Under the pieces are notes generated by a model. The model made no database searches, was not told where the DNA came from, and saw only the letters and a list, made by a program, of their open reading frames with translations. The translations under genes were made by a program, and so were the position numbers. Source: a virus (taxonomy: Duplodnaviria > Heunggongvirae > Uroviricota > Caudoviricetes). Taken from it: 64,000 bases of DNA. Location of the stretch: positions 1 through 64,000 of the IMG/VR virus record IMGVR_UViG_3300047409_000308. One strand, given 5' to 3'. Shown here piece by piece: positions 3,835-41,400 of this stretch. How positions within the stretch are numbered: the stretch's first letter is position 1; each line of letters begins with the position of its first letter.

Positions 3835-4067
3835 GCAATATCAGGCAACGCACTGATCCACCAGCAGTGGGGATCACACCTGAGCAAATAGCCCAAGGGG
3901 AGCGGCAATGCCGGGAATACGAAACAGCCCAGTTTGCAGCCCAGTTTGATTGGCTGGAATTCATCCTCGTCGTCTTTTTCTTCTGGGGGTTCGCCCTACA
4001 GGCATTGATCGCATCGATCTTCATTTGCGATTGCGATCGGCAGGATACCGATAGGAGGGATATATGA
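3831..4067 (+). CDS. Hypothetical small membrane protein (78 aa)
   Basis: ATGA overlap; hydrophobic segment 'FILVVFFFWGFALQALIASIFI'. Confidence 0.5.
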   Translation: MSNIRQRTDPPAVGITPEQIAQGERQCREYETAQFAAQFDWLEFILVVFFFWGFALQALIASIFICDCDRQDTDRRDI

Positions 4068-4486
4068 AATTCCGCAACGTTACCCGCGAACAACTCGAAC
4101 AAGCCCTCTATACCACCTCCATCATCCACTACCCGGACCCAAGCCCAGAGAACTATGGCGGCGGCGGTAATTTGATCTGGAAGCGTGCGCCAACCCGCAA
4201 AGGCAATGCGTTTATCGCCACTTTGCGCGTCAAGGACAGCCACAAGGCAGGTGCGCGTCTGTCGGCGCAAGGCAAGCATACCGTCGCCGCTTCCTGGCAT
4301 GCCCACCGGGATTTCTTCCGTACCCTCCTGACCGTCGCCCCGGAGTGCATCATTGACACTGGCTTGTACGGGGCACAACGCTATGCGGGGCTGGAAGATT
4401 TCGAGCAGAAACACCCGGCGACGTATTTCATCAATATCGGCAGCGAGGCATGCCATGTTCGCATCGGCGAACTGTCCGTACTGTAA
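4064..4486 (+). CDS. Hypothetical protein (140 aa)
   Basis: ATGA overlap with upstream gene; GGAG-like RBS ('gatagGAGGgatatATG'). Confidence 0.6.
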   Translation: MKFRNVTREQLEQALYTTSIIHYPDPSPENYGGGGNLIWKRAPTRKGNAFIATLRVKDSHKAGARLSAQGKHTVAASWHAHRDFFRTLLTVAPECIIDTGLYGAQRYAGLEDFEQKHPATYFINIGSEACHVRIGELSVL

Positions 4487-8375: not shown

Positions 8376-8506
8376 ACATCATCAAAATCCTGCTCCTGAT
8401 CGATCTGGTGCTGCTGTATGCCGTGCTGTATCGCATGCGGTGGCTTGCGATATGGAAACCGTGTTTCGATAGCTTGAAAACCTACATGAGAGACAGGCAA
8501 CGGTGA
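8372..8506 (+). CDS. Small membrane protein (44 aa)
   Basis: ATGA overlap with the peptidase gene; one hydrophobic helix 'IIKILLLIDLVLLYAVLY'. Confidence 0.35.
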   Translation: MNIIKILLLIDLVLLYAVLYRMRWLAIWKPCFDSLKTYMRDRQR

Positions 8507-10161
8507 AAGCGACGCTTCAACAACTCATTAACGACTACAACCAGGGGACTACTGCAATGGCAATCAGTACGATCACGGATCGCGCCGCATTCTACGCTTC
8601 CCGCACCGGGGAGCATCTCACGCGACTGCTGTCCATCGTTAGCAAGACTAGCCTCGCCGAATTGAAACAACGCAAGCTCGGCAAGGATGAAATCATCGAT
8701 GCGCTGGATGGCTTTGGCGCGGACACCTTGCTCATGGCCGATAAGATTCTGGCCTCGGGCGGCGGGGGGCAGGAAGGACAAGGGGGACAGCCGGTAGAGG
8801 ATAACGTGGTGGCGGGCGTGGTGAAGGAAATCGGCGGCATCATCACGAAAACGGTGAACGCCCGTGTGGAGCCGGTGGAACTCGCGCTTATCTCGCTCAA
8901 GAACGAGAACATGAAGGTCGTCAAGACCACCAGCGATATCGCCACCGTGCTGAAAGACAACATCGATGCCCTGGCGAAGGACATCAAGGATTTGTCCGAT
9001 GCCTCGGTGGGGCGGGCGGAGTTGCCCGGCTTGATCGGCAAGCACGGCATTTCCGCTGCGGTGTTGAACGCTGCGGTGACGGAGGCGGTGAGTGCAAGGC
9101 TGACCCTCTACACGGCAGACACGGAACCTCTGACTGAGGATGAAATCAAGGCGGGGCAGATTCCCAAGGTTGCAAAGACAAAGGGTGAGGCGAAGCTCGC
9201 CATCCTCGCCAACCGCCCCCGCGTGGTGAAGGTGGTGGATGCGCAGTCCTTGTTCGGCATCGACTTGAAGGATGCCGGGGGCGCACCGCTCCAGGTGGAA
9301 TTGTGGAATGACCCGGACCATGAGCGCGTGAACCCGGATTACGTGTTCGACCCGGAGAACCTGCGCGTCGCCTTGCTGGCGCTGTCGAAAAAGCCTTGCC
9401 GTAACGTGTTTTGCTTCGGTGAAACCGGCACCGGCAAGACCGCTTTTGCGCGGCAGTTGTCGGCCTTGCTGAAGCGCAGGCTTTTCAGGATCAACTTCGA
9501 GAACGGGGCGGATTCCTACAACTTCATCGGCGGGGAGCGGGCAAAGGATGCAAGCACCGTCTATCAGTACGGTACGTTCTCCCTCGGCCTCATGCATCCG
9601 GGAGCGCTGATCCTGCTGGACGAACTGTGCTTTGGGAAGCCTGGGCATCTTGCAGCCCTTCACTCCACCCTGGAAGAAGAAGGCAAGCTCACCATCACCG
9701 AGACCGGAGAGCGGATTGAGCGTGAGGAAGGCGTATGCATCTTCGCTGCCGACAACACCAATGGCACCGGAGACCGCAGCGGGCGCTATGACGGCCTGTA
9801 CACGATGAACTCGGCCTTGCGGCGCAGGTTCTCGTTCTGGATTCGCTTCGAGTACATGAGCCCGGAAGCGGAGACTGACCTTGTGGCAAGGCACGCCAAG
9901 GTCAGGAAGAACGCGGCCAAGGCGGCAGTGGCGCTGATGAATGCGCTGCGGACTGCGGCAAGGGCCGGAAACCTGTCGGATTCTCCCTCGCTCCCACACG
10001 CCATTGCATTCTGCGAACTGGCGGCAGCAGGGAAATCGCCCAGGAAGGCGTATGAAGAAACCATCGTCCTTGCCACGTCTCCGGAGTACGCGGAGAAGTT
10101 GCAGGAAATCTACGTCGCTTCGTTCAACGAATCGTCCTTTGCCAAGGCGATTGCCGCATGA
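8503..10161 (+). CDS. CobS/MoxR-like AAA+ ATPase with a ~245-aa N-terminal extension (552 aa). GTG start at 8503; alternative ATG at 8557.
   Basis: Walker A 'FGETGTGKT', Walker B 'LILLDE'. CobS-type N-motif 'VNPDYVFDPENLRVALLAL'. Sensor/arginine region 'FAADNTNG...RRRFSF'. Confidence 0.8.
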   Translation: MKATLQQLINDYNQGTTAMAISTITDRAAFYASRTGEHLTRLLSIVSKTSLAELKQRKLGKDEIIDALDGFGADTLLMADKILASGGGGQEGQGGQPVEDNVVAGVVKEIGGIITKTVNARVEPVELALISLKNENMKVVKTTSDIATVLKDNIDALAKDIKDLSDASVGRAELPGLIGKHGISAAVLNAAVTEAVSARLTLYTADTEPLTEDEIKAGQIPKVAKTKGEAKLAILANRPRVVKVVDAQSLFGIDLKDAGGAPLQVELWNDPDHERVNPDYVFDPENLRVALLALSKKPCRNVFCFGETGTGKTAFARQLSALLKRRLFRINFENGADSYNFIGGERAKDASTVYQYGTFSLGLMHPGALILLDELCFGKPGHLAALHSTLEEEGKLTITETGERIEREEGVCIFAADNTNGTGDRSGRYDGLYTMNSALRRRFSFWIRFEYMSPEAETDLVARHAKVRKNAAKAAVALMNALRTAARAGNLSDSPSLPHAIAFCELAAAGKSPRKAYEETIVLATSPEYAEKLQEIYVASFNESSFAKAIAA

Positions 10162-10412
10162 GTGCAGGGGTAAAAGAGGGATTGCGCGGGACCGTGCATT
10201 GCGACAGTTGCGGGTGGGATTCGGAACCGGGGGAGGTGTTGAACGCCTGGTTCGACCGGCCCTGCCCGCACTGCGCAGCGCTCCTGATTAACAAAAGCGA
10301 CAAGGCGCTGATCGAGGGGCTCGATGCGGCCATCCGGATTGGGCTGGCCAAAAATTGCAAGCCGGGAGCCGAGGGAAGTATTCACATCGATACAAGGAAA
10401 AACCATGAGTGA
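10158..10412 (+). CDS. Small zinc-ribbon protein (84 aa)
   Basis: 'CDSCGW...CPHCAA'; ATGA overlap with the AAA+ gene. Confidence 0.5.
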   Translation: MSAGVKEGLRGTVHCDSCGWDSEPGEVLNAWFDRPCPHCAALLINKSDKALIEGLDAAIRIGLAKNCKPGAEGSIHIDTRKNHE

Positions 10413-10590
10413 TGTGCTCGGCGTGGAGCGCTGGCGCATGGTGAAAGATGTGCGCAAGTTGGACCGGATTGCCCGGCTAGTAGAGAAAATCGAGGCCGAA
10501 CCCCAGACAGTCATTGAACCTGCTGTCTCCGTGCAACTAGGACGACAGCAGGTAGCCGATGAACTGCGTGCCATTTTGGAAAAGGACTGA
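10405..10590 (+). CDS. Hypothetical protein (61 aa)
   Basis: ATG overlapping the upstream stop; in frame with track ORF 10324..10590. Confidence 0.4.
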   Translation: MSDVLGVERWRMVKDVRKLDRIARLVEKIEAEPQTVIEPAVSVQLGRQQVADELRAILEKD

Positions 10591-10592
10591 GC

Positions 10593-12728
10593 ATGGCAAA
10601 TAAACCAACCACCCCCCTGGGAGCAGTCAGGGGGTTCGAGATCATGAATAGCCTGGGCGATACCATGAGGACGGTGCTGGAGACAAATAAGCCCTTCACC
10701 GAGGACTTCGCCGCAGGTGGGCTGTCGGTAGCATTCAACGGCAATGAAGCGTTCTCGTCCTGGGCGAGGAATGCAGCAGGCGGGATTTCCGGCATCCTCA
10801 ATGCCCCGTCCCTGGCACCGGATGCCCACCTCTCGCGCCATCAAGCGGACCTGTACGTGGGCTATGGACTGCATGAGATGGGCCACATGTGCTATTCCGA
10901 CCACGGCCCGTTCCAGAAGATGAACGAGCGGCAGGGGACGATGGGCGTGGCATTGCTCAAAGCCCTGGAAGACCCGAGGGTGGAGCAGGCGGTGATGCAA
11001 TCGAAGATGGCGGGCAATTCCCGCGCCCTGTTCGAGAACTTGGCCTGCGCCATGTATTCCAACGCCATCACCCAGGGCTATGACGCAAATAGCATCAATT
11101 GGCTGCCTCTAACCCTGTCCTTGCTCGGGCGGGATCGCAGGGGCCAGCATTTCCCGGAGTCAAAGGACATCCGTGCGGCCATGAACCCGGAGAACCTGTC
11201 CCTGGTCGATGAAGCCCTTGCCATGATGGACAAAGCCCCGCTTACCTCTGATGGCACCCAGGACGCCAGAGCGGCAGCGCAGTACATCATCGACAAGCTG
11301 AACCTGCCGCCACAGCCGAACCCGCCACCGCAAGGCAAGGGAAAGGGACAGTCGCAAAAAGGGCCAGGAAAACCCCAGGAAGGCCAAAAAGACGGCACCC
11401 AGGGCGATAACGATGATGGGGAGTGCCAAGGGGAAGGGGACGCAGAAGAAGGCCAGGGAAGCTCTCCTGGGCAGGGTAATGAGGAAGGTGAAGGTCAGGA
11501 TGCTGGGGATGGGAAGGGAGAAAAAGGCAAGCCCGGTGACTATGCCGATGGGGGCGGGGGCAAGGGATATTCCAGGCATGGCTCTGGTGCTAAATGGACC
11601 AAGGTGGACTTGAGCAAAGCCACGCCTAAGCAGGTGGGGCCGGAGCAGGCCATCGATCAGGCTGCAAAGCATGCCAATGCGCAGGCGATACGCTCGGGGA
11701 GTCACTTCGACCCGTATGAATTTCCATCGGCCATTGGCAACGAGTATGACTTCCGCCATGGGAAATCTTATTCTTCCTACTTGCATCATGGTGCGAGCCA
11801 GGAGAAATATGAGCAATTGAAGCGCCGCCTGCCCTCCGACCTGGGTTCCATGCGCCATGCCTTGTGGCGGCTCCTGAACTCACGCGATGAAGCCTATGTG
11901 GACCGCTACCGCGAGGCGGGGCGCTGGGATAATCGCGCCATGCCGAGGATGCTGACCGGAGGCACCTCCCTCTACAAAATGACCACCGAAGTCATGGGCT
12001 TGAGGACAGCGGTATCGATCATCGTGGATGCTTCCGGGTCCATGAGCGGTAACTCAGCGGTCAATTCAGCCTCGGTGTGCATTGCCCTCGCAGAAACCAT
12101 GGAGCAACTCGCCGGGCATGGCGTGGTGTATCAGATCGCCTGCTTCGAGGACTTTGATGGCGGCACACGCGATGGTCAAAATGCCGCTAATGACTTCCTG
12201 CACAAGTTCTCCCTCCGCACAAACTGGCGTAATGCAGGAACGAGCAAAATCAACCACGCCCGCCGCACCCTTGTCCCGCAGGACAAAATGAACTGGACAA
12301 GAAGGCTGAATGAAACCCGCGCCACCTGGGCTGCGAACATTGCCATCTTCAAGGGTTTTAACGACCGGCTGGCGACCTGCCGCGAGGCCATTTCGACCAT
12401 GGCGAACTTCGTAGGCGGGGGCACGCCCGATGCGGCTGGCGTCGGACGCGCGATCTACCATGTGCTCAACCGTCCCGAGCCGAACAAGATCGTGATGGTG
12501 ATTACCGATGGCTGCGGGCAGGAGGATGAAGTCAGGAGCTTCTGCAAGTTCGGTGCCGAGGTAGGGGTGGATGTCATCGGCGTGGGCATTGGCGACACCT
12601 CGGTGCGCAAGGTCTATCCCATCAGCGTCACCGCGAGCAGCATCGAGGCCCTGGGCAAGGCTGCCTTCGGCAAGATGGTGCAGGTGGTGCTCAACAACCG
12701 GCGTAGGCAAGGCCGACAAGCTACCTAG
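10593..12728 (+). CDS. CobT-like protein with C-terminal von Willebrand A (VWA) domain and internal acidic/Gly-Gln-rich low-complexity region (711 aa)
   Basis: MIDAS motif 'IIVDASGSMSG'. Acidic G/E/Q-rich stretch ~aa 235-330. Immediately downstream of the CobS-like ATPase. Confidence 0.8.
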   Translation: MANKPTTPLGAVRGFEIMNSLGDTMRTVLETNKPFTEDFAAGGLSVAFNGNEAFSSWARNAAGGISGILNAPSLAPDAHLSRHQADLYVGYGLHEMGHMCYSDHGPFQKMNERQGTMGVALLKALEDPRVEQAVMQSKMAGNSRALFENLACAMYSNAITQGYDANSINWLPLTLSLLGRDRRGQHFPESKDIRAAMNPENLSLVDEALAMMDKAPLTSDGTQDARAAAQYIIDKLNLPPQPNPPPQGKGKGQSQKGPGKPQEGQKDGTQGDNDDGECQGEGDAEEGQGSSPGQGNEEGEGQDAGDGKGEKGKPGDYADGGGGKGYSRHGSGAKWTKVDLSKATPKQVGPEQAIDQAAKHANAQAIRSGSHFDPYEFPSAIGNEYDFRHGKSYSSYLHHGASQEKYEQLKRRLPSDLGSMRHALWRLLNSRDEAYVDRYREAGRWDNRAMPRMLTGGTSLYKMTTEVMGLRTAVSIIVDASGSMSGNSAVNSASVCIALAETMEQLAGHGVVYQIACFEDFDGGTRDGQNAANDFLHKFSLRTNWRNAGTSKINHARRTLVPQDKMNWTRRLNETRATWAANIAIFKGFNDRLATCREAISTMANFVGGGTPDAAGVGRAIYHVLNRPEPNKIVMVITDGCGQEDEVRSFCKFGAEVGVDVIGVGIGDTSVRKVYPISVTASSIEALGKAAFGKMVQVVLNNRRRQGRQAT

Positions 12729-14019: not shown

Positions 14020-14021
14020 GC

Positions 14022-14285: not shown

Positions 14286-14560
14286 AATTTACCATCGGAG
14301 ATAGGGTCAGGTTCAACAACACAGACTATCCGGAATGGGTTGACATGGAGGGGACTGTCACTGGCGCGTTCACCACTACAGCGAGCTTTGTAAAACTGGA
14401 CGGCAAGGTGAATCCAAACTGCATCGGTAATGGACACACAGGAGACTACGCTTTCCAGAACAGGAACCTCACCCCTCTCGGTACATCGTTGGAGCAGGAA
14501 CTCACCACTGCCATGGCCCCGCTGTTTCAGTATTCGGCAATCTCGGAAAAATCCTCATAG
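14282..14560 (+). CDS. Paralog 3 of the 'GDRVR...EGTVTG' family (92 aa)
   Basis: 'MKFTIGDRVRFNNTDYPEWVDMEGTVTGAF'; ATGA overlap with paralog 2. Confidence 0.55.
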   Translation: MKFTIGDRVRFNNTDYPEWVDMEGTVTGAFTTTASFVKLDGKVNPNCIGNGHTGDYAFQNRNLTPLGTSLEQELTTAMAPLFQYSAISEKSS

Positions 14561-16275
14561 GTTCCGGCCATGGGATTGAACCGGATCGAGGCGCTGCCCT
14601 GAGCGCCGATCCACCTGTACCTGCATTTCCACACATCGATATGCACCTGCTCGCCTGTGCCACGATGCACCGTGATGCCGCAATCGGCCTTGGCGAACCA
14701 CGCCGCGCTGCCGGAAATGGTTTCACCGTCAGGATGATTGGAGTTGCCGTACATTTTGGTCGGGTGCGCGACGAACCAGACATGTACGTCGTTCGCCTTG
14801 GCGAAGGCTTGCACCTTGGATAGCATCTCGCCAATCTCGTCCGTCTCCGTGCCCTTTCGCTCCAGGCGGATGTAGTTGTACGGATCGATGACAAGGCCGC
14901 GTATGCCCATCCGCTGCACTGCCGCCCTGGCCCGCATCAGGATCGCATCGATGGTGGGGGGTTCGGCGTCGTTGAAGTCGATGAAGGTGAAGTGTTTGTT
15001 GATCCAGGCCAAGGCCGTGCCGCGTTCTTCCTCGCTCATGCGCAGGTAATCGCCGCCTTCGCCATGCTCGAAGAAGGGTTTGCCGGTGGTGATTTCAAGG
15101 AGGCGCGCAATGTGGACAGCGGGCGTATTCTCGAACGAGCAGTAAGCTGTCTTGAACTGCACCGAGCGGGCGAGGTTGATAGTAAGCTGATCGATTACAT
15201 TCGACTTACCTGCACTCGGTTTGCCCGTAACCACGGTAAGCTGCCCCGGCTGCACCGAGTACAGATCGCGCAAGGCAGCGAACCCGGTGTCGATGCCCCT
15301 GCCGGTGCGCTTGTTGTACAACCCGATAATGTCCTCGGCATAGTGTTCGGCTGTGAATAGGCCGGAGATGGGATAGGGTTCGGCTTGGTCGATGACGAGC
15401 TTCAAGGCGGGTGCGCCGTGTTTAACGAGGACATCATTCGCATCCTTGCAGCCTGGAGGATAGGCGACGGTCCAGCATTTTTCCTTGCCGATGCGCCGGG
15501 CGAGTTCTTCCTGCAACGCCTGCCCCGGCTCGTCGTTGTCTACCGCCAGCACGATCTTCGACACTTTGTTCAAGAGCACCCTCGCTTCCCCCACGCAGGC
15601 AAAGCGCCTGTCCTCGATGGGCGATGCCTTGCCCATGGAAACGAGAAGGGGCGCACCGCTCGGGACCGACACCGCATTCTCCACCCCGGCCTCGGTGCAG
15701 GACAATGCATCGATTTCGCCTTCGGTGATAACGAGTACGTCCACCTTGGGGTTGACCCGCGCGAGACCGTAGAAGATATGGTTGCCCCCGGCATCCTGCA
15801 TGAATGCTTTGGCCGTAGTACGGTACTTGTTGCCTGTGACATGATTATGATCGTGGTAGGGAAAGGCGATGCACGATTCGATGGCGTTGGTGGCCTTGAA
15901 GTATTTGCTCGCGGTGTACAGCCCCGCCGCAGTGCAGGTTGCCTGGGAAAGTCCCCGCCCCTGGAGGTAGGCGAGTTCAGTTGCACCAAGTACGGTATTG
16001 ATTGTTGTTTCTGGCTTGGCAAAGGACAACGCTTGCGCCGCGTTCATGGATCGATACCTCCGGTATTTATCTGGGTTAAATGAGGAGCGCTGGCGCACAA
16101 CACCCTGTTCGGAGCAGTGCCAGCAGTAGTACAGCACGTCGCCGTTATCAGCACGGTCAACGGATAGGCATGGGTCACGCGGGGATTTCTTGCGCGACGA
16201 CGAACACCAGGGACACAGGATGCGGACATGCGATGCGCAGGCGACAGCAGCAACGATAAGCGCATCTTGAAGCAT
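14527..16275 (-). CDS. Bifunctional DNA primase/helicase, T7 gp4-like: Zn-binding N-terminus, TOPRIM, DnaB-like helicase (582 aa)
   Basis: N-terminal 'CPWC...CWHC'. TOPRIM 'VLVITEGEIDALS...VLAVDNDEPGQ'. Walker A 'VVTGKPSAGKS'. Helicase motifs 'VWFVAHPTK'. Confidence 0.85.
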   Translation of the reverse strand: MLQDALIVAAVACASHVRILCPWCSSSRKKSPRDPCLSVDRADNGDVLYYCWHCSEQGVVRQRSSFNPDKYRRYRSMNAAQALSFAKPETTINTVLGATELAYLQGRGLSQATCTAAGLYTASKYFKATNAIESCIAFPYHDHNHVTGNKYRTTAKAFMQDAGGNHIFYGLARVNPKVDVLVITEGEIDALSCTEAGVENAVSVPSGAPLLVSMGKASPIEDRRFACVGEARVLLNKVSKIVLAVDNDEPGQALQEELARRIGKEKCWTVAYPPGCKDANDVLVKHGAPALKLVIDQAEPYPISGLFTAEHYAEDIIGLYNKRTGRGIDTGFAALRDLYSVQPGQLTVVTGKPSAGKSNVIDQLTINLARSVQFKTAYCSFENTPAVHIARLLEITTGKPFFEHGEGGDYLRMSEEERGTALAWINKHFTFIDFNDAEPPTIDAILMRARAAVQRMGIRGLVIDPYNYIRLERKGTETDEIGEMLSKVQAFAKANDVHVWFVAHPTKMYGNSNHPDGETISGSAAWFAKADCGITVHRGTGEQVHIDVWKCRYRWIGAQGSASIRFNPMAGTYEDFSEIAEY

Positions 16276-16336
16276 GCGAACCCCAGGTGGACTACGTGGC
16301 TATGTGCGATAACGGACGTACCGCAGAACAACCACG

Positions 16337-16735
16337 TTATGCCTGTTCATCGTCTTTCGCAAGCACAAAAACCTGGACCTCGACCCTCGGATTTAAACGG
16401 TCTATGTGGTGGTACAGGTGCTTCTCTTTGATCTGCCGGTCGTTCTCGTAGATGCGATTTTGCATTGCATCAATCAATGCGTCATCGCACAAATCCGGGC
16501 GGCGTGAAGCGTAGTAGAAATCCATCCTCAGGCAGACATCCCCGGTGAGCAATGGGTGAAGCTGCCGCACCTGCAAGCGCACCGCATTAGCGTAACCCCT
16601 CGCCTTGGCCGACTTGATGACGGCAGGGCGATGGTTGATGGTGACAATCTGCCGCTGGTTCTTTGCGGACGCGGGTTCACCGAGCACGGTGAAACTGCAA
16701 ACGTGGATGCGTTTCATGTCGATATTATGCACCAA
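16337..16735 (-). CDS. RusA-like Holliday-junction resolvase (132 aa). Alternative start at 16718.
   Basis: 'RPDLCDDALIDAMQNRIYENDRQI' resembles the RusA catalytic Asp cluster (D..DN...D..QI). Size and context fit. Confidence 0.5.
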   Translation of the reverse strand: MVHNIDMKRIHVCSFTVLGEPASAKNQRQIVTINHRPAVIKSAKARGYANAVRLQVRQLHPLLTGDVCLRMDFYYASRRPDLCDDALIDAMQNRIYENDRQIKEKHLYHHIDRLNPRVEVQVFVLAKDDEQA

Positions 16736-16987
16736 TTGATTGAACTGTTGTTCAGTCTATGGTAGCTTAGAAAAATTCAGCGCATATTGTTGCTGCTGTG
16801 TTGCTGCTGTCTTGTACACAGTGGCACCCGGTAATAAGCTGGACAGCGGTTTCGCCCCTTCAAAGCGCGAGACAGGCCGAGGCAACCAGAGAACCAGGGG
16901 AGCGCGAATGGAAGGGTGACGCCTTCCCTCCGCTATGCTCAACCCGGACTGGTCGTTGCGCTGAATCCTTATTTGTGGAGGAGTTTG

Positions 16988-17218
16988 ATGGCAAACGCAA
17001 GCAATGAATGGTTGCAGAACGTGAAGGTGGGGGATGTGGTGACGCGCAATCTGGCGGGGGTGCCGATGAAGCTGAAGGTGACGGAGGTGACGCATGACCG
17101 CATCCTCTGCTCACCCTGGGAGTTCTCACGGCGCAATGGCGCTGAAATCGACGGGGACATGGGTTGGAACGAGAGCGTAACTGGTTCATTTTTGGAGGCT
17201 GAAGATGACAATGCGTAA
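16988..17218 (+). CDS. Hypothetical protein (76 aa)
   Basis: GGAGG RBS before the ATG at 16988; in frame with track ORF 16916..17218. Confidence 0.4.
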   Translation: MANASNEWLQNVKVGDVVTRNLAGVPMKLKVTEVTHDRILCSPWEFSRRNGAEIDGDMGWNESVTGSFLEAEDDNA

Positions 17219-17360
17219 AGGCCGCAAGGCACGTAAGGTTTTGGATGCACGCAGCACGGACTACAGCAGGATGATTTCGCCAGGCATGCCACATGAAGGC
17301 AAGGTAAGACAGCGTATCGAGAGTGGCGGGTACAAACGGCCAGGAAGTAACAAGAAATAA
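17205..17360 (+). CDS. Small basic hypothetical protein (51 aa)
   Basis: GGAGG RBS 6 nt upstream; MTMRKGRKARKVLD... Confidence 0.3.
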   Translation: MTMRKGRKARKVLDARSTDYSRMISPGMPHEGKVRQRIESGGYKRPGSNKK

Positions 17361-17569
17361 TGAAGACTAATGTTGCCTTACCAGAAATCACAGCCAGGAT
17401 CATGTTGATACTGCTCGACCTGTACCTCACCGAGGAAGAAGCAGATGCATGGCTGGATTCAAAAGCGCCTGCCTTTGGCGGGGCCACACCGCGCGAGATG
17501 ATAGCGACGGGACGGGGGAAGGAAGTGATGCGGCTACTCGATGCGACAGTAAGCGGAGCCTATTTATAG
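17360..17569 (+). CDS. Orphan Xre/MbcA/ParS (DUF2384)-like antitoxin toxin-binding domain protein (69 aa)
   Basis: 'EEEADAWLDSKAPAFGGATPREMIATGRGKEVMRLLDATVSGAY' matches the DUF2384 consensus (A..WL....paLgG.tP.e.l.t..G...V...L....yG.y). Confidence 0.5.
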   Translation: MKTNVALPEITARIMLILLDLYLTEEEADAWLDSKAPAFGGATPREMIATGRGKEVMRLLDATVSGAYL

Positions 17570-17578
17570 GGGGGCCAC

Positions 17579-17818
17579 ATGAACATTGTCAGGGTGCTGG
17601 AGATAGCCGTGCTCGCGGTGGGGATATTGCTATTCATCACGCAAATCACCATCCCGCTCTATCGGGGGCGACCCATATTTCCATGGTTCAGGCGCGAGGG
17701 CAAACTGCTGTCCGAAGTGGAGGACCTGCGGCAGCAGAAGGTGGAGCAGGAGTTGCAAGACATCATCAATAAGGCGAAGTCCGGATTGAAGCATCAACCT
17801 AAAAAGGGAAGCAAATGA
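17579..17818 (+). CDS. Small membrane protein (79 aa)
   Basis: N-terminal TM 'VLEIAVLAVGILLFITQITIPL'; overlaps the SPFH gene start. Confidence 0.45.
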   Translation: MNIVRVLEIAVLAVGILLFITQITIPLYRGRPIFPWFRREGKLLSEVEDLRQQKVEQELQDIINKAKSGLKHQPKKGSK

Positions 17819-19020
17819 TTTCATGGAGAGGCATCAGTATTCTCGGCACGGCGGCAGTGGTATTCGTAATCGGTATGTTCGTGCTGTTCAGTTGCGTCGA
17901 ATGGCTCGATGCGAAACATGTCATGGTGATTCAGTACCCGAACGGGGAGCTTGCCGCTTTCACTGAACCAGGACCTAAGCCGCAGTGGTTTGGCAATGTC
18001 ACCACCTATGAGCGCCGCGCACAGATCGCGTTCGGCGAGAAGACCGGCGGGTATCCTGCGCTGCGAGTAAGGTTTAATGACGGAGGGCATGCAGACATGA
18101 CCGGGGCGGTGTCGTGGGAGATACCGATCAAGCCGGAGCAACTGATTCGTTTGCAGAAGGACTTCGCTTCGCAGCAGGCCATCGAGCAGCAGTTGGTGGT
18201 GCGCGCCCTGAATAATGCGGTGTACTTCACCGGCCCCTTGATGTCCTCCACCGAGTCCACTGGCGAGCGGCGGGCGGAGTTGTTGAACTACATCGACGAT
18301 CAGGCGAGGAACGGCGTATTCCAGACGCAGACCCGCGCAGAGAAACAGAAAGACCCGATCACCGGGCAGGAAAAAACCGTCAACGTGGTGGAGATTGTGA
18401 AGGATGCGAAGGGTGTGGTGCAGCGTAACTCAGGTTCGGCCATTGGCGACTATGGCATTGCCCTGATGCCGCCATCGATCAACGAAATCAAGTACGACGA
18501 GGTGGTGGAGAAGCAGATCAAGGAGCGGCAGAACTCCATCACCCAGGTGCAGATTTCGCTAGCGAACGCAAAGCGTGCAGAACAGGACGCCCTCACCACC
18601 GCAAAGCAGGGCGAGGCCAACGCGGCCAAGGCCAAGTGGGAGCAGGAAACCATCAAGGCGAAGGAAGTGACGCTGGCGCAGCAAAAGCTGGAGGTGGCGC
18701 AACTCGGTGCCAAGGAAGCCGAGCAGATCAAGCAGCGTGAGATTCTGCTGGGGCAGGGCGAAGCGCAGCGGCGTCAGCTTGTCATGTCGGCAGATGGAGC
18801 ATTGGACAAGAAGCTCGAAGCGCTGGTGAAAATCAACGAGTTCTATGCCGCAGCCATCAAGGACTACAAGGGCAACTGGGTGCCCAATGTGCAGATGGGC
18901 GGCGACAAAGCCGGAGCGAATCAGGGACTGGCATTGATTGACCTGCTCACCGCCAAGACCGCACGCGACCTCGGCATGGATTTGTCCGTGACTGGAAAAA
19001 GCAACACAACGGGTAAATAA
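17815..19020 (+). CDS. SPFH/band-7 (HflC/prohibitin-like) domain membrane protein (401 aa)
   Basis: N-terminal TM, then an SPFH-like core ('MVIQYPNGELAAF...ALRVRFNDGG...') and a long Ala/Glu/Lys/Gln coiled-coil. Confidence 0.7.
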   Translation: MISWRGISILGTAAVVFVIGMFVLFSCVEWLDAKHVMVIQYPNGELAAFTEPGPKPQWFGNVTTYERRAQIAFGEKTGGYPALRVRFNDGGHADMTGAVSWEIPIKPEQLIRLQKDFASQQAIEQQLVVRALNNAVYFTGPLMSSTESTGERRAELLNYIDDQARNGVFQTQTRAEKQKDPITGQEKTVNVVEIVKDAKGVVQRNSGSAIGDYGIALMPPSINEIKYDEVVEKQIKERQNSITQVQISLANAKRAEQDALTTAKQGEANAAKAKWEQETIKAKEVTLAQQKLEVAQLGAKEAEQIKQREILLGQGEAQRRQLVMSADGALDKKLEALVKINEFYAAAIKDYKGNWVPNVQMGGDKAGANQGLALIDLLTAKTARDLGMDLSVTGKSNTTGK

Positions 19021-19023
19021 AAG

Positions 19024-19434
19024 ATGAAAACAGTTTTAATCCGCAATGGTGCGTGGCACTACTGGCTTGCCAGAGAAGGTGGATATAGACCGGAACACGA
19101 CGAACCTGACCTATGCACCTACATGGCCGCGATAGGCAAGACTATTGTGGCTGGCTTGTTCGTAGCTATGGTCATATCCATCGCCTGTGGTGGAACTATT
19201 TATCTCTTGGCTGATTTCATCGGCTGGTTCATCGCCGTACTGTACTGGGGGTGGGTGCCACTTGAGGCACCAGGCATGGTATTCGTAATGCTTGTCGGCT
19301 GTGGAATTGGTGCCCTTCTATTTAAGTGCCTATGTGAACTTCTGGGTATGGCAGTAGAGCACACACCTGACTTCGTACCCGCTGCCTATGAATCCTTCCG
19401 CGACAAGGTGTGTTTCAAGATCAGGATTGAATGA
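19024..19434 (+). CDS. Polytopic membrane protein (136 aa)
   Basis: Three to four hydrophobic segments. Confidence 0.5.
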   Translation: MKTVLIRNGAWHYWLAREGGYRPEHDEPDLCTYMAAIGKTIVAGLFVAMVISIACGGTIYLLADFIGWFIAVLYWGWVPLEAPGMVFVMLVGCGIGALLFKCLCELLGMAVEHTPDFVPAAYESFRDKVCFKIRIE

Positions 19435-19435
19435 C

Positions 19436-21423: not shown

Positions 21424-21424
21424 C

Positions 21425-32484: not shown

Positions 32485-35400
32485 TTATTTCTGCGCATGC
32501 GCAGAAACGTACAGTCTATTCGAGTTTTGAATCACATAGTCCATTTGTGCATCAAGCCGCTTGCTGATTGTTCTTTTAAACTCCTCCGGCACGGCGGAGT
32601 CGGCGAGTATCTTCCGTTTCTGCCCGCGCAATGCGGCAAGCTGCGCGTCTGCCTTGGCAAAAACTCCGGCAATCTGCAAATCCTTCTGGTGCGTAGTCAG
32701 AACTTCTTTTACGCGCTCGGCGTCATGGGTCGCAATTGCTTCTTTCATTTCGTTTCTGATCGTCAGTACCTCAGCCGCGTGGGTATAGAAGCTCTCTGTT
32801 TCAGCCCGCTTATCCAAACCGCCGACAACTTTTCTTAGGAATGGAATGCCTGACACCTCAACATCCGCTCCATCCCCAGTGATTGCCATGTAGGCACCAC
32901 GGGCAGTTCGTTGTGCAAACTTCCCTGCTGAACCTGTAATGAAATCCATCAAATAGGAGAGTGTCTCCGGCGAGATATCAACCGCTCCAGGTATGGCTGT
33001 CGTGCCTCCGCTGATTTTGTTTATCCATTCACTCAGCTTCACATATGGCAACGCTGTATTCGACCAATATAATTGGCTGTTTGGTTTCTGCCCCGGAGAG
33101 AATGGATTTTGTTCAGGCACTATCGTCTGACCGGCGAAATTTTTGTTGGTGGACAAGTCAACAAGTGGATCGAAAAGCGTCGGCGACACGAAATTGAGCC
33201 AGTTCTGGGTGCCCCCAAGGGGGTTGGCTGCATCCAGCGCGGTCATGATGGTGGAATTCACCGCTTTGCCGACAGGCGTCTTCCCGGCAACCATCGAGGA
33301 CAAATTGCGGCCCGCGTTGTAGAACGCATTGAACCCGTAAGGCATTGGAATGGCGATGTACTTCGTTGAGCCTGGCATCATGAGGATCATATTGTGCTCA
33401 CCCGCCCACGCTTTCGTGCGCATGATCTTGTCGTAGGCGTTCTCCCCATCCTTGTCATCGGGGGACATGGCCCGGTTCAGCATGTCGATGAGGAAGGCCG
33501 TGCCGACAATGCCATAGGCGATCTTCCTCACCCGAGGGGACTTGAGCGCTCCCACCATCACCATGGTGCCCTGGAGTGATGCGTTGTAGAACAGGTACAG
33601 GCTGTTCATCAGCGTCTTGTATTGTCCGCCCCTGGAGAAGTTGACGGTGATGTTCCGGGCCAAGGTCCCCGCTTGCTCCTTCGTCGCCCCTGCATCGATG
33701 GCCGCTTTGTAGGCAGCAAGCCGGGTGGCATTCTCGAACACCGTATTGACCTGCTCCAGGTATTCCCCGACTGCACGCACCGTATCCATCACCTTGCCGG
33801 TGACACCTCTCCCATCCTGCATGGCCTGCACCCGTTTCTGGATCACCTCTATCTTTTTCCCGATGTCCCGCAGCCCGAGAAAGGCGGTCTTCCCGCCATG
33901 TCGGCTCATGTCATCGAACGCCATTGCCCATTCGTTCGTCGCTGCTGCCGGGTCGTTTTTCAGCGCGAGATACACCCCCTTGATGGCTGACGGGATGTTT
34001 CCCGCGATTCTTCCAGCCACCCCCTTGTAGTCCGTGCCTTGCAGCACGATCTCCGCCATTGCTATGTCTTTGGGAAGGTTGGACAGGAAGAACTCCGGGT
34101 TCCAGGCGGTGTTGACGCGGGCAAGGATAGTGTTTAACCGGCCCATGACTTTGATGATGGTGCCAGCGGTTTCATTGTTTGCCGGATTCACCCCCTTGAT
34201 CGCCGCAGCAAGGCGGTGGTCATGGATGAGGAACTGCGCTTCCCGGATTTTGCCTGGATTCTGCTGGTCGGCTTCCTTGACGACGAGCGTGTTCGGGTCG
34301 TTGTAGGCCGGGTGCTGTTTAACCCTGATGGCTCCATCCTCATCCACTACCCATTCCTTCTGCGTTGGCACGAACTTCTGCTCCTCAACCGTGCCCTTCA
34401 TGATGGGTTCAGCCGAACGCACCAGTCCGGCAAAGGCCCGCCCCACGTTTGCCGACTCCGCGCGCTCGATGGCTTTCTCGTTTTGCATGATGGCCTGAGC
34501 AATGACATGCTCCGGGTCTTTCTTGCGTCCGGTCATCTGCGGGTCTTCCCGCCCGCGCACATCGCCCATCAGCCCGGTCTTCCTCCACTGCGGGATCGGC
34601 GACTCGTCCACGTCCTCCTCGGACTTCCGTAACGGGGCATAGTGTTTAAACCCGAGGGCTGGGTCGTACACCTCGGTCAAGGCGTTGTCCTGCCGCACCT
34701 CATTCGTATTCCGGATGATGTTATCGAACAGGTCGCCAATCTTCTGCATCTGCGCTGCGCCATATTGGGCCTCGATCTTCGCCTGCAACACCGGGGCAGC
34801 AGCGTCGGTATAGCTCGGGCCGGAGCCGTTGATGACGCCGAACTTGGCCTTGAGATAGGCATTGCGCTCGGGCGCATGGCGGGCGGCGAGCCAGGCATCG
34901 GCCTCGTTGATGGGGACTTTGCTGCGCTTCAACTCATCGATCAGCGGGGTGTAGAGCGTCCTCTCCGCCCGGTCGATGCGGTCGCCGATGACGTTGTTCA
35001 GGGCATCGGCCTTGACGTAGGAATTGAAGGCATCGGGCACCGAGCCGTTACGCGCCTTGATGAAGTCGTTTAACCGTTGCAGCGACAGGTTGCGGTCCTG
35101 GAACTTGATACGCAGGTCATCCCGGTGGCCCATCGGCGTGGTGAAGTCATGCACCGCATCAGCGAGCACCGGGAAGCGCCTGCCGAGGCGCTCGGCCAGC
35201 CCTTCATCCCGCACCATCCGCACCCCGTCGCCAGTCAGGGAGAACTTCTGGTTCTTCGGGTCGAACTCCTCGTTCCACACGCTCTTGATGTTCCTGCCAT
35301 CGAACACCGCCACATTCGTCACGGCGTCCTCGGTGATGGTCATGCCGTCATAGCCCGCAGCGCGGATGACGCTATGCACCGGATGCTGCTCCATGGCGGG

Positions 35401-38400
35401 CCAGTTGTGCGTGGCTTCGCCAAAGTTGTTGACGATGTAGGCTTCCACCCTCCGTATCATTCCCTGCGTGGGGCGGATGCTGCTTTGCAGGATGTCGATG
35501 TAATCCTGCGTCTCCGGCAGGTCCGACATGGAGGTGAGCAAGCTCAACAACCTTTGCTCGTACAGCTTGTCCTTGGTTTCTCTGAGAATGCGCGCCGCGC
35601 CTTCCGGAGTTTTGAGTTCGTGATATTTCGGATTTACATAACTCAGGGTCCGGAGTTCGACCATGTGCAACTGCTCTGCATTTTTAAACGCTGCATTGCG
35701 AACGAGGGAGATTAAACGCCGCATGTCGTCGCGTTCTTCCGATAGCAGGTAGCGCCCACGGGCGAACGCCGGAATGACCACGCCCATGTGCGTGTCCTCC
35801 GGGTCAACCAGGCCATACTGCGCATCATATCCAGCGTAGCCGCTCGCAAAGGACGGGCTCGTAGAAAGAAATGTCATTGGGTAGAATCCACGCATGCCTG
35901 GCTCGAATGACTCGAACAGGGTGTGCCTCGGCTCCGTGTCGGTATGCACCGGGTAGCCGGTGCCATGGTACAGAACCAGCGGCAGGTTGTTCCGATCACG
36001 AAGATTGGAGCGGCTGTCGTAGAAATTGGCGAACTTCGGGTTCAGCGTCAACCCGCGCACATAGACATCAGAGATGGAGTATTTCCGCCTGTCCGCATCC
36101 ATCTGCACCTGCTGCTCTGGCGTGATGACGGAGGCTATCGACGGGGCCTGACTGACCGGCCCGCGCAGGATTGATGCAGCCCGCTCGTCCTTCAGGATCG
36201 ACTGCACCCCGAAATGAAGGTTCTTCGGCAATTCATCGGGCTTCGTCCAGGCGTAGCCCTGCGTCTCCCAATCCATGCTCGGGGTGAATTCATGGTCCAC
36301 CTCGGCAATGAAATTGTGATACGAAAACGCACCCTTCTTGAAGGTGTAGAGCGGGGTCAGGTCAAACACACCACTGTATCCAGCTTCTTCCATCACCTCC
36401 CGGCGCACCGCATCCTGCGGGGTTTCATTGCGGTCGATGGCCCCGCCCCAGGTGCCCCAGGTTCCTGGCTGCTCCACATCCTTCGAGCGATGCGCCAGCA
36501 TCACCCGGCCCGTATCCCGCGCCCGGAAGATGACCCCGGCCCCGGCATTGCCCCAGAAGCCCGTCTCGGCCAGCGCCCTGGCGTGCGCTTCTTCGTCGGC
36601 CATGGAGTAGCTCGAACCAGGGTGGGTGGAGAACGTGCTTTCTGGCGGACTTTCAGGAGGAACTGAAACAATCCATCGTGAATTGATGCTACCGCCTCGC
36701 GGATACTCGATTAGCTCCGCTTTGTTTAATTCATGCATTACCTTATGCGGAATTTCGGTGCCATCATCGAAAATAGATTTTGCGGAATTGCCGAACATGA
36801 GCGTCGGGAGATCGCCACCTTGCATGCGTTTAAGCACCTTCTTTGCGGCAGGAGATAATTCCTTGTCAGATAGCGAGAACCTGCCAGATGACGGGGATGG
36901 TCCTACTCCCGCATCAGCCGCAGATGGTCTTCCAGGCTCTCCGCCTGCGGGGCGGTCTTCACGGCCTTCTCCAACAAGGCGACGTACTCCGGGGAGGTCA
37001 CTCTCATTCCCTCCTGCTTCGCTGGCCTCAGCAAGCCTTCCAGATACCCCTGCGCTCCCGGTGGATTCTGGCCCACCAGCCAAGCGGATTCCACGATTCG
37101 TGAGATTTCCATTTCTGGTCCTTGTAAAATAATCCGTTACGGCCTTGTAGTCGCGCAGCAGTTCACGCAGGGTGACGACGATCTTCTGCGAGTCCCCTGA
37201 TACCGCCAGCACCACCCCCATGCGTTGCAGTTCTGGAATGAACCCAGTCTCGCTGTGGTTGTGTTCCGTGTGATGGACAAGCTCATGGATCATGGTGCTC
37301 AGTACCCTGACGCTCGCCTGATGAATCGAGGCCGGGTCTGTGCCGAATCCATCGCGCACGATGGTCGGGTTGAGCATCATTGCCTTGAACGGGATGGACG
37401 TGTTGACCCCGTAATACTCCGTGTCCACGCTAACTCCGACCGGAACCTGGCTTGCATCCGCATATTGCGGCCCGCCCTCGCGCACCACCGCATCGCGCAC
37501 GCGCTTGAACACATTGCCCATGCCGCGCAGATACCCGTACAGTTGCGCCGTCCCCACCTCCTTCGCCGCTTCTTCGAGGTAAGGCTTGCCATCGAGCAAC
37601 ACGTTATCGTGGACGATGAGCATCTGTGGGTCGAGCAGGTTTTGATCCACCCGGAACTGTGTTGGATCACGCTGCATGGCCTTGAGATTTTCCTTGGTCA
37701 TCTCAGGCATGATGCGGTTATTCACATACAGTCTGCCGTCCCTGACTTCCACCTTGTCGTTCTTGTCGATTTTAAGCGTCGTGCTCTGCTTCGCTGGCGG
37801 GACATTGAGGTTGACGCGCGTCATGCGCGTTCCATCTGGCGACCATTGCGCCAGCGTGCCGAAGGATGATGTGGAGGCTTCATCCTGTTTGTTGGCGTAG
37901 AGCACGTTGATATATTTTGTCAGCGTCTCGAAGTCCGACTTCGCCGCCTGCGAATATCCCTTGCGGTTCAGTGAAATCGGATAGTTTGGCGCATCGGCTT
38001 TGACATCCGGTTCGATGTTGAAGAAGAATTTATATGGAACCGACCCGGAAAATATATCCAGCGGGTCTTTGCTGATCTTCTCATCGAACTGAAATAACCC
38101 ATTTGATAGCACCGACACGTTGTTATAGCCTGGGTACTGTGTCTCGGCCACCAGCACGCGCACTTTGCCCCACGGAAACTTCGCCACTGTCATCACGGTA
38201 TATTCATCTGCTGGGAAATTCTTTCCGATGGGCACCGTATCGCCGTTCACTCTGACATTGACGGGCTCGAACAGCGGGCTTTCCTTGAGGAAGCGATGCG
38301 CATCATAGGAATCTGGAAACTGGATGGGCTTATCTGTCCCGTCCTCATCGTCGTGGTACGTCTCCGGCACCTTGACTGTAACCACCGTACCTGATGGTGC

Positions 38401-41400
38401 GGACGTTTTACGCATTAGGATATCCGGTGCCTTGGATGGGTCAGTGAATGCGCTCATGAGTTGCGCACCGGAAGTATTCAGGGTGCTCTCTAGGCCGTTA
38501 CGCACCGTGCGCAGTTGCAGCGATTCGTTGCCGAACAGGAACAGCATCTTTGCAATGCCAAGCCCGCCGGATGCCCGTTCCGTTTCCTTCTGCGTTCCGG
38601 CGAGCGTGAGGAATGCCTTGTTGATCGTCTCCGGCGTCATGCCCGTGCCATTGTCGGTCAGCGTAATGGTTCGGTGCGTATCGTCCAGGTCGATGTCAAT
38701 GTTTGCCTCGCCCTTGTGGCCTTGCGCCAAGGCTCCCTTCAACGCATCGAAGGAGTTCTGGAACATCTCCTTGATTGTGACCGGGCCGATGTCCTTCATG
38801 TTGCCGTACAACTGCGGGCCAAGGAGTTTCGCCATGCGCGCCATGTCCACGCCTGGCGTAGCACGCACGCTACCGGGCTCATCGGCAAGCGAGAACTTGC
38901 TGCTCTTGTCCTGGGCAATCAGATCGCGTGCGGCCTGTGCTGCATCATCATAGGAATCATGCATCGACTCCTGCCCCTTGTAGAGCAGGTGATGTTTGGT
39001 ACCGATGACATTGCCCTGCGCGTCACGGTATTCATGGCGCGTCAGGATGGCGGGGAATAGCGGCCCGCGCGACCACGCTTGTACGCTTGAGTGCGGCGTT
39101 ACATCCTTGCCGCCTGTCCGGTCGGAAAGGGAGAGCTTCGTTCCTGGCGCTACTTGGGCTTGGCTGGCGGCATCGATTTCGAGCTTGGCAGCGTTCCGCC
39201 GAGCATCATGTAGCCGAGCGAGTAAATCCGGTCCCCCGGCTGCGCGACTCTCTCTTTCGAGAGCACTTCCTCCGGGGTCGGGATTGGCCCCGGTGGTGCC
39301 CCAGTTGTGAACGAAGTACCGGGTTTCAGCGCCAAAGGTACTGGTTTGCGCAATGTCATGGTGCAATGCCTTTGCAAGGATTCTCATCTGGATGTGGAAG
39401 TCCGCATCCGTCATCATGAATGGTACGCCGTCAGCACGGAAGTTCAATACGGCAATCTCATTCGGCGCAACCTTGGTGTAGGACATTTCAGGATGCGCCT
39501 GCTGCAACAGGGCGTACACGATCTGTTCCTGTTGTAACGTCAGGTCTTGTTTAAACTCGAAGCTGCGCCCTGCGGCATAGCGCGGATCGTTCTGGTTGAA
39601 CGCGATGTCCGGCCTGATCCACGGCACTGCTGCCTGCCGAAACACGTACTGCCATGCACGCACGTACTGGTTCACCTTTATCTGCGGCGTATTGCCGGGG
39701 AAGCGCACCAGCGCATTGGGATTGACGTTACCCTCGAACGCACCCGTCGATAGCGTGATGCTCGGGGCCGGAATGCGCAGGCCCGTGGCGATGATGTCCG
39801 TGCCCGCCCTGGGCTGGATGAGGTTGATGCCGCTCCGGGTGAAGGCTTCCCTCGCTGGCGTGGGCAGGCTCAAGATAGCAGGGCCTACCGCTATTTCCTT
39901 CGCCGGTACTGTCTCCAGCGCCCCTGTGCGGTTGCCGTATTCGTCAGCAAGCGATTGCCTTGTCTGCGGTGCTGCCTCGCCTGTCTGCCTGCGCATCTCA
40001 CCAGTGGTTCCAATTCCCGCCTCGCCTTGGCCCATGCGTTCGAATATATCGTCGGCGGAATGGAAGCCTTGGCCTGTCAATCCATTGCGCAGCGCCTCGA
40101 AGAAATTGCGTATCTTGTGATAGATGCCTGGGAAGAACCCGGACACATGCAGATCGCCCATGGCGTGCGCTGCGAACATGTCGGCCACAGCTTCTTCGTG
40201 CAGGCTTTCCTGCGTCAGGTTCTGTCCGGCATAGCGCGTGCGGATCGAATCCTTGTGCTTGCCAATGGGCCGGTCGAGCCAGCCTTCGCGGTCGATCTTC
40301 GCTTTCAGCAACTCCCAGTTCTTATCCGAGATCAAGCCATGCTCTCGCAGGGCATGGACGATCTCATGGTGCAGGGCGCGCATCGGCTCGCGCATGGGCG
40401 AATCCAAGGCCACCGCAATCATGTTGGCGAAATCGCGCCATTCCCCTTCAGCCCGCCTGCCGACTCCAGCGGGGATGAGGGTTTCAAGCGACAGCGCTAC
40501 CTGCTTCGCATCCAGTCCTGCCTGTGTCATCACGCCCTGGAGCATGCCTCGCATGTTGTAGATTTGCTGTGCCGCGAGAGCAGCCTTGGGCACTACATTC
40601 GGCTGAACCTTGACCGGGGTGCGTATCCTCGCTGCAACCTCTGCGGGTGAACCACCTTGCGGAACGATGACCGACGCCACCCCGCCAGCCGGGGCTGCAC
40701 CACCCTGCCTGCGAGTTGCTTCGTCCGCAGCCATTTGCGCCACCCGTTGCTGGGCAATGGATGGGCCAGGAATCCGGCCAAGGGATTGTTCCTCCGGTGT
40801 CCGTGTGTCTTCTCCAGCTTGCCGCATGGCAGACAGGGCTTCGTCGGACGAGCGCTCAACCCCAGCCGCACGCGCTGCTTCTTCGGTGGGGAAGGTGGCA
40901 ATGGGTTGGGCTTGCCTGACTCCGTTCGTGGACCCGTACAGGGAATGCCCCTGGGTCGTTCCCTGGGCCGTTGCGGTGGTCGTTGGGACAATCTGATGTC
41001 CAGGTATCAACTCGGGTGCGTTCGCGCCTACAGCGGCCCCTACGGGCCTTCCATGAGCCTCTGCGGGCATTCCTGTGGCAGCTTCAGGTGCGGCCAGCTT
41101 GGTCAGGTCGGTGAGGACGGGGAATTTTTGCATCTCCTGTAATATCTTCAGCACAGCAAAGCGCTGCGGGTGGGACATGGTAGTAATGTCTTCCCAGCCC
41201 GTGATCTGCTTCATCAAACTCCGGAACCCTTCGTTCTTCCCGCCGTTGGTGACGATGTTTGCATCGTCATGCGCGGCCTTGGTGATCTGATCCTCAGATA
41301 CCTTGGCCTTCAGCTTGAATCCGTGCCGGATGGCAAGCAGGCGGTCGATGTGGTTTGCTCGGTCTGCTCCGGACGTGGTGCCGTTTTCAGAGAGCGCCGC

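Follow-up and report, generated by a model that had tools for sequence, protein, structure and literature searches.

The toxin–antitoxin (TA) modules Xre-RES, MbcTA and ParST combine a RES/ParT-family toxin with an antitoxin that carries a toxin-binding DUF2384 domain (PF09722, Xre_MbcA_ParS_C). In MbcTA of Mycobacterium tuberculosis, the main contacts are made by the C-terminus of the antitoxin MbcA inside the arginine-lined cleft of the toxin MbcT, and MbcA that lacks its last 10 residues no longer neutralizes the toxin, a loss of only the last 2 making binding weaker (PMC6436930). Bacteria are protected from phages by stand-alone RES proteins (aRES) through NAD+ phosphorolysis, a defense that phages counter by means of the small active-site binder aRad1 (bioRxiv 10.64898/2026.01.28.702374). 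Counter-defense by orphan antitoxin-like phage proteins has been documented against DarTG1 (PMC11825919). Here we describe a gene for a 69-amino-acid (aa) DUF2384 protein in a 64,000-nucleotide stretch of tailed phage DNA (Caudoviricetes; positions 1 to 64,000 of IMG/VR record IMGVR_UViG_3300047409_000308), the whole of which is referred to as the window. This protein is a truncated, toxin-less and phage-borne form of the known antitoxin domain and falls within the known concept of orphan-antitoxin counter-defense. We posit, with a probability of about one half, that it may neutralize toxins that deplete NAD+ through a RES domain, whether these belong to the host or to competing elements.

A toxin-binding domain without its N-terminal half

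The open reading frame (ORF) starts with ATG and its product, MKTNVALPEITARIMLILLDLYLTEEEADAWLDSKAPAFGGATPREMIATGRGKEVMRLLDATVSGAYL, is encoded identically by a called gene in two independent assemblies, a contig of 74,418 bp from the Joint Genome Institute (JGI) and a Logan contig of 74,321 bp. The protein matches PF09722 with E = 6.5e-8 and 32.9 bits (gathering cut-off 24.5), well above what chance would give, residues 24-63 being aligned with profile positions 8-48 of 51. Within an alignment of 60 sequences (alignment A2), W31 occurs in every member, and G41, P44 and G51 reach a conservation of at least 90%. From the full-length models of RES/Xre antitoxins in NCBIfam (NF049845, TIGR02293; COG5642) only the C-terminal halves were matched, at positions 55-111 of 112 (27.1 bits against a cut-off of 90) and 75-125 of 133 (20.2 against 57). 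As these matches are confined to the C-terminal part and fall far under the cut-offs, the protein represents the toxin-binding domain alone, without the HTH (helix-turn-helix) or N-terminal half, and is thus a minimal copy of the domain by which the RES/ParT-family antitoxins MbcA, Xre and ParS bind their toxins. That the gene might be a frameshifted piece of a complete Xre antitoxin was considered and rejected, since the upstream ORF has no HTH match and relatives of 57-82 aa are common. The 69-aa protein had no meaningful match in PHROGs and none in PADLOC.

The fold is likewise that of the antitoxins. A profile built from 60 relatives retrieved, among PDB sequences, MbcA (6FKG_C, 1.3e-9), Xre of Pseudomonas putida (6GW6_B, 7.8e-7), ParS (6D0H_B, 3.2e-5) and VPA0769 of Vibrio parahaemolyticus (8GUG_B, 0.012). 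The AlphaFold2 model computed from the same 60-relative alignment has a mean pLDDT (predicted local distance difference test) of 83.9 and comprises four helices at residues 6-21, 25-33, 44-49 and 53-65. In a Foldseek search of the PDB with this model, the nine best matches were all RES/ParT antitoxins (probability 0.85-1.00) and no credible fold match of another kind was found. The query-normalized template modeling (TM) scores were 0.78 for MbcA, 0.73 for VPA0769, 0.72 for Xre and 0.58-0.63 for ParS. Profile matches and fold matches therefore agree with PF09722, and the original prediction, which had assigned the product to DUF2384 from its letters, was right in this respect.

MbcA (Rv1990c; PDB 6FKG) is the closest described protein by both profile and fold, the fold match extending over the whole 69 residues. 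MbcA residues 49-115 align with the window protein, and the alignment reaches the final residue of both proteins, which places the hydrophobic/aromatic tail that blocks the NAD+ cleft of MbcT in register. The C-terminus of the window protein lies 38 residues past the invariant Trp, as in MbcA, and reads G-A-Y-L-COOH compared with ...AEGVFV-COOH of MbcA. This W+38 ending was scored in 31/56 short and 13/62 long relatives, counts in which the distance was automatically taken from another Trp, closer to the C-terminus, for most of the remaining relatives. The tails of some relatives are non-aromatic (…SGAPA, …SGVAS), so the plug is not universal. That a domain-sized piece can sit on a toxin is indicated by PDB 6D0H, according to its entry names a 72-residue ParS fragment with ParT.

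The differences from the cellular antitoxins are those of size and setting. MbcA has 113 aa with an extra N-terminal half and is encoded on the chromosome in an operon with MbcT, whereas the window protein has 69 aa, is phage-borne and lacks a toxin. With ParS, P. putida Xre and VPA0769 (6D0H, 6GW6/9R35, 8GUG) it shares PF09722 and the four-helix fold (query-normalized TM 0.58-0.73). In their full-length form these three carry an N-terminal HTH by which the operon is autoregulated (PMC12204516), and it is this half that is absent from the window protein.

Two known phage counter-defenses are comparable. Like aRad1, a phage protein of ~70 aa that is reported to block the NAD+ pocket of RES (bioRxiv 10.64898/2026.01.28.702374), the window protein is predicted to close the active site of the toxin. 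aRad1 does so with a flexible internal loop and a Trp, whereas the DUF2384 family would use its C-terminal tail in the manner of the cellular antitoxins. Between aRad1a (preprint Table S4) and the window protein BLASTP gave no alignment and hhalign a probability of 0.1%, and given this lack of detectable similarity aRad1 is of a different origin. The DarG-like proteins (PMC11825919) resemble the window protein in being toxin-less phage homologs of a host antitoxin, and they neutralize a TA-type defense; they are enzymes that reverse a modification, whereas the window protein would be a stoichiometric blocker of the active site. A limited literature search yielded no link between DUF2384/PF09722 and phage counter-defense. 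To our knowledge, the aRad1 family is the sole direct phage inhibitor of RES reported so far.

A RES-free genome and orphan relatives in other phages

The Logan contig has a terminal overlap of 30 nt (17593..17622), its two ends being contiguous in the window, and closes to a circle that is 127 nt shorter than the JGI contig, from which we conclude that the genome is circular or circularly permuted with a length of 74,291 bp. The assembly break of the Logan contig lies 53 nt past the DUF2384 stop. Genes for terminase, portal, capsid, SU10-type adaptors and lysozyme identify the element as a phage, and the genome further encodes a depolymerase-like tail protein, HNH, primase-helicase, RusA, PDDEXK, ERF, a tyrosine recombinase, Dam, an AAA_5/CobT-vWA pair and a 3390-aa polyvalent protein. 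As the phage carries an integrase, a temperate lifestyle is possible. In its capsid protein the phage shares 60-71% identity with the Synechococcus/Planktothrix phages MinM2 and Pag-Yong1, with phage DSL-LC04 and with HTVC023P-type pelagiphages.

Gene calls with precomputed Pfam matches revealed no RES (PF08808) or ParT/MbcT-type gene in the whole 74,291-bp genome, nor was RES found by direct Pfam, PHROG and PADLOC scans of the neighbors and of nine unannotated proteins of 140-319 aa. The locus consequently lacks the adjacent, co-oriented RES (PF08808) toxin gene that marks a RES-Xre, MbcTA or ParST module, and the absence of a RES, ParT or MbcT toxin gene, claimed earlier for the adjacent genes, extends to the entire phage. 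The protein is thus a phage-encoded antitoxin homolog without a toxin, as is characteristic of the orphan-antitoxin counter-defense class. A toxin partner elsewhere in the phage had been named as an observation that would speak against an anti-defense role; no RES or ParT gene is present, but a probable ART-PolyVal domain, of the ADP-ribosyltransferase (ART) fold, occurs in the polyvalent protein and is considered below.

Relatives of the protein were sought by an exhaustive phmmer search of 1.84 billion representatives, followed by a profile search. The phmmer search returned 42 matches at E ≤ 1e-3, mostly of 59-82 aa and many with a G-A/V-Y-L end like that of the query. A word-indexed search of proteins with this one sequence found nothing beyond the 69-aa protein itself, and a single-protein search for related loci in IMG/VR found no relative. 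GenBank phages, including the nearest cultured relatives, gave no match either by megablast of 14000-22000 or by tblastn of the 69-aa protein, and none was found by tblastn with the relatives P0027 and P0060. With the relative P0025, tblastn matched the phages Ibhubesi and Nitzel, both cultured mycobacteriophages of the cluster F type. In Mycobacterium phage Ibhubesi, a 55.6-kb siphovirus, gp52 (4001..4186 of the fetched locus) is a 61-aa 'hypothetical protein' encoded in the early right arm that matches PF09722 above its cut-off, with 26.6 bits, and has no RES neighbor; Nitzel contains the homologous 61-aa region. The annotation of the first 50 kb of the Ibhubesi record names neither ART nor RES, and the 192-aa gene downstream of gp52 has no Pfam match.

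Orphan relatives recur in phages of different kinds. On a Mu-like contig a short relative lies beside HNH, GemA and Mor (L015), in a podophage another is flanked by the portal gene and Bbp19 (L014), and at a prophage end a third adjoins an integrase and an AlpA-like gene (L021), in each case without a RES neighbor. An actinophage-like contig with WhiB, RNA ligase and TROVE/Ro genes (L013, 7766..8186) encodes a 61-aa DUF2384 protein whose gene overlaps that of an 80-aa Acb2/Tad1-hairpin protein (PF24729, 5.8e-11), and this pair may form a small anti-defense island. RES-free short relatives also occur amid other TA genes on plasmid-like high-GC contigs (L005-L012). In BFVD, several proteins of 57-95 aa from uncultured Caudovirales show the same fold with query-normalized TM scores of 0.63-0.77. 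A metagenomic protein of 531 aa (P0002) is of a different build, with seven tandem DUF2384-like repeats that each have the W-L-x-x-P-x-x-x-G-x-x-P motif; a role as a scaffold or in multivalent toxin binding is conceivable.

RES-linked members of the family served as controls. A back-translated motif scan of metagenome contigs, biased to W-L-x4-P-x-F-G-G-x-T-P members, yielded 58 candidate family loci, and the scan returned some false positives (L020, L022-L024, L054, L058, L069, L076, L080, L106 and L108). In 18 loci the directly downstream ORF cluster is RES, and four of the five neighbor ORFs that were tested match PF08808 (1e-11 to 8e-18), which shows that RES is readily detected where it is present. 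Among the RES-linked antitoxins are three without HTH that lie directly upstream of RES and have maximum lengths of 77, 85 and 96 aa (L079, where the RES is partial, L088 and L097). Proteins consisting only of DUF2384 can hence be complete antitoxins for RES toxins. Shortness alone does not imply orphan status, and what matters here is that RES is missing from the genome as a whole.

Two further observations concern the same set of loci. A second downstream cluster, c6, consists of proteins of about 182 aa without a Pfam match. In a freshwater 'WLQKPHPVFGGSTP' group (L046-L110; for example L048 213..1503 and L078 2223..3411), the DUF2384 proteins are 104-200 aa long at the longest possible start and are followed in some contigs by the ~182-aa c6 protein and in others by a Phd/YefM-like antitoxin and a PIN-like gene, which suggests that cassettes are swapped downstream of the same 'WLQKPHPVFGGSTP'-group antitoxin.

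Genomic neighborhood and the polyvalent protein

The DUF2384 gene is located within a rightward accessory block of small genes, with primase/RusA on one side and the PDDEXK-ERF recombination genes on the other (Table 1). Translational coupling with the 51-aa ORF directly upstream is possible. Five flanking genes had no homolog in 104 other fetched loci, most of which contain DUF2384, and the gene accordingly has no conserved partner. A module formed with the SPFH and membrane protein genes was rejected, as they do not co-occur elsewhere. The SPFH/Band-7 protein is membrane-anchored and matches Band_7 with 24.2 bits (cut-off 23.6) and phrog_11908 with 5.8e-42; its homologs are found in crAss-like Bacteroides phages, in Vibrio, Aeromonas and Sinorhizobium phages and in a 462-kb uncultured phage. 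Pag-Yong1 has other small genes in the same slot of an otherwise syntenic replication module, and the position of the DUF2384 gene is a variable slot. Upstream in the window, an AAA_5 (MoxR-like) ATPase gene is followed by a gene for a 711-aa CobT/vWA-like protein; a comparable ATPase and VWA pair occurs in the same module of Pag-Yong1, and a separate 211-aa VWA protein is encoded outside the window (L004, 13041..13676).

Table 1. Features of the DUF2384 locus and of other regions of the window discussed in the text.
Feature	Position	Strand	Basis or remark
DUF2384 / Xre_MbcA_ParS_C stand-alone protein gene, 69 aa	17360..17569 (including stop)	+	ORF listing, PF09722, AlphaFold2 model, PDB fold matches
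PF09722-matched segment (aa 24-63) with invariant Trp31 and P-x-F-G-G-x-T-P loop	17429..17548	+	Pfam match
C-terminal pentapeptide S-G-A-Y-L-COOH, predicted active-site plug	17552..17566	+	End-to-end alignment with MbcA C-terminus
AAA_5 (MoxR-like) ATPase and 711-aa CobT/vWA-like protein	8482..12728	+	
Divergent intergenic region between RusA + primase-helicase (- strand) and + strand block; presumed promoter region	16736..16987	.	Without sigma-70 consensus
76-aa ORF, first gene of rightward block	16988..17218	+	Gene call; no family match
51-aa highly basic ORF	17205..17360	+	Stop overlaps DUF2384 start (TAATG); no Pfam, PHROG or PADLOC match
Downstream accessory genes: 79-aa single-pass membrane protein, 401-aa SPFH/Band-7 protein, 136-aa membrane protein	17579..19434	+	Family scans
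SPFH/Band-7 protein	17815..19020	+	Band_7, phrog_11908
3390-aa polyvalent protein	32485..42657	-	LPD38, NUDIX, HATPase_c
Probable ART-PolyVal domain, aa ~2221-2464 of polyvalent protein	35266..35997	-	PF18760 near-threshold

The polyvalent protein contains LPD38 (aa 3084-3273, 2.5e-34), NUDIX (aa 2039-2149, 1.2e-15) and HATPase_c (aa 1295-1432) domains and is probably an injected multi-enzyme protein. PF18760 (ART-PolyVal) scored 24.6 bits on the whole protein and 30.4 bits on the sub-sequence, where the match covered profile positions 1-137 of 140, against a cut-off of 31.2; the motifs LYHGT, FLSTS and ITED are visible in this region. NUDIX beside ART suggests a manipulation of NAD/ADP-ribose metabolism. 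An identification of the 3390-aa ORF as an N4-type virion RNA polymerase was rejected in view of its LPD38, NUDIX, HATPase and probable ART-PolyVal domains.

Proposed function and its alternatives

For target, neutralization and expression timing we infer the following course of events. The 69-aa protein would be expressed during infection, probably from the rightward accessory block, and would meet RES NAD+ phosphorylases or ADP-ribosyltransferases of the host or of rival elements, be they toxins of Xre-RES, MbcTA or ParST modules or RES-based defense proteins such as aRES. It would attach to the toxin through its four-helix body and insert its free C-terminal tail, G-A-Y-L-COOH, into the NAD+ pocket with its arginine lining, as MbcA does with its own tail. 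NAD+ depletion, and hence abortive infection, would thereby be blocked once the labile antitoxin of the host runs out. An anti-defense role against such toxins had been put forward in the original prediction, and what speaks for it is circumstantial: the RES-free and HTH-less relatives in unrelated phages and mobile elements, the overlap with the Acb2/Tad1-hairpin gene in the actinophage-like contig, the register of the C-terminal plug, and the precedent of RES as an anti-phage effector (bioRxiv 10.64898/2026.01.28.702374).

Several points count against this function. The survey of orphan contexts was non-quantitative and comprised about ten inspected cases. The orphans amid TA genes on plasmid-like contigs might also reflect competition between elements or simple decay. 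A sigma-70 promoter scan around the DUF2384 gene found none. The best capsid segment is 69-88% identical to that of aquatic phage contigs binned into taxonomically inconsistent metagenome-assembled genomes, so that the capsid search assigned no host in which RES could be looked for. The ART-PolyVal domain, finally, is the only ART-fold candidate of the genome; it is not RES, and it could be the real partner of the 69-aa protein.

If it were, the 69-aa protein would serve as immunity protein or antitoxin against the ART-PolyVal encoded by the phage itself, holding the domain inactive in the producing cell until packaging and injection. The near-threshold match over almost the full profile, the LYHGT, FLSTS and E-containing motifs and the adjoining NUDIX are in keeping with this, as is the structural likeness of MbcT, a RES toxin of the DUF2384 partner type, to ADP-ribosylating toxins such as diphtheria toxin (PMC6436930). 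We nevertheless regard such an immunity role as improbable, because all solved DUF2384 complexes are with RES/ParT (COG5654) toxins and none is with ART-PolyVal, because orphan relatives occur in phages without an annotated ART or polyvalent protein, such as Ibhubesi, and because ~15 kb separate the two genes, which belong to different modules and are encoded on opposite strands. The toxin might also be sought next door, in the 51-aa basic ORF, the 79-aa membrane protein or the SPFH protein, so that a non-RES toxin and the DUF2384 protein would form a novel phage TA or addiction pair. The TAATG overlap of the 51-aa stop and the DUF2384 start is typical of coupled two-gene modules, the neighbors have no known function, and an integrase-bearing phage may be temperate. 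Start/stop overlaps are, however, common across the gene calls of this genome, and SPFH homologs are present in phages where the search with the 69-aa protein found no match. None of the five neighbors has a homolog in the 104 other loci, and the neighbors of the orphan relatives all differ (Acb2-like, HNH, portal/Bbp19, AlpA). A cryptic TA pair with the 51-aa ORF is unlikely for want of a conserved neighbor, and we give a partner among the adjacent genes very little credence.

It is doubtful, too, that the domain has been repurposed as a small helical adaptor for another host or phage protein, or that it is the decaying relic of a captured TA module. With 69 aa the protein is very small, and its secondary, weak Pfam match to Rv2175c_C (E = 0.0098) illustrates that similar helical bundles exist outside TA systems; some relatives have non-aromatic tails, and the seven tandem copies in P0002 hint at other uses of the module. 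Yet the ORF is intact and its product confidently folded, retaining the invariant Trp and the GG loop together with the precise register of the C-terminus, and proteins of similar size occur in many unrelated phages, which argues for selection over decay. Neutralization of RES toxins of the host or of competing elements remains our preferred reading of the 69-aa protein.

Extending this reading to the family is more tentative, with the odds in our estimate somewhat against it. In such a scenario, stand-alone DUF2384 mini-proteins, including Ibhubesi gp52 and its Nitzel homolog, would constitute a widespread phage family of captured antitoxin domains that act as stoichiometric inhibitors of RES-based NAD+-depleting immunity (Xre-RES/MbcTA/ParST and aRES). 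They would be a second anti-RES family, independent of aRad1, that reuses the C-terminal plug of the cellular antitoxins.

The counter-defense logic as such will not surprise specialists, but the hypothesis is specific and timely, and should it fail, the protein would be merely a small accessory domain. The cultured mycobacteriophage members Ibhubesi and Nitzel make it directly testable in a genus in which MbcTA is of medical relevance. If true, it would provide an easy Pfam-based marker for anti-defense loci and a means of switching off MbcT-like toxins. It would also mean that phages capture just the toxin-binding half of a host antitoxin, which would represent a simple evolutionary route to counter-defense.

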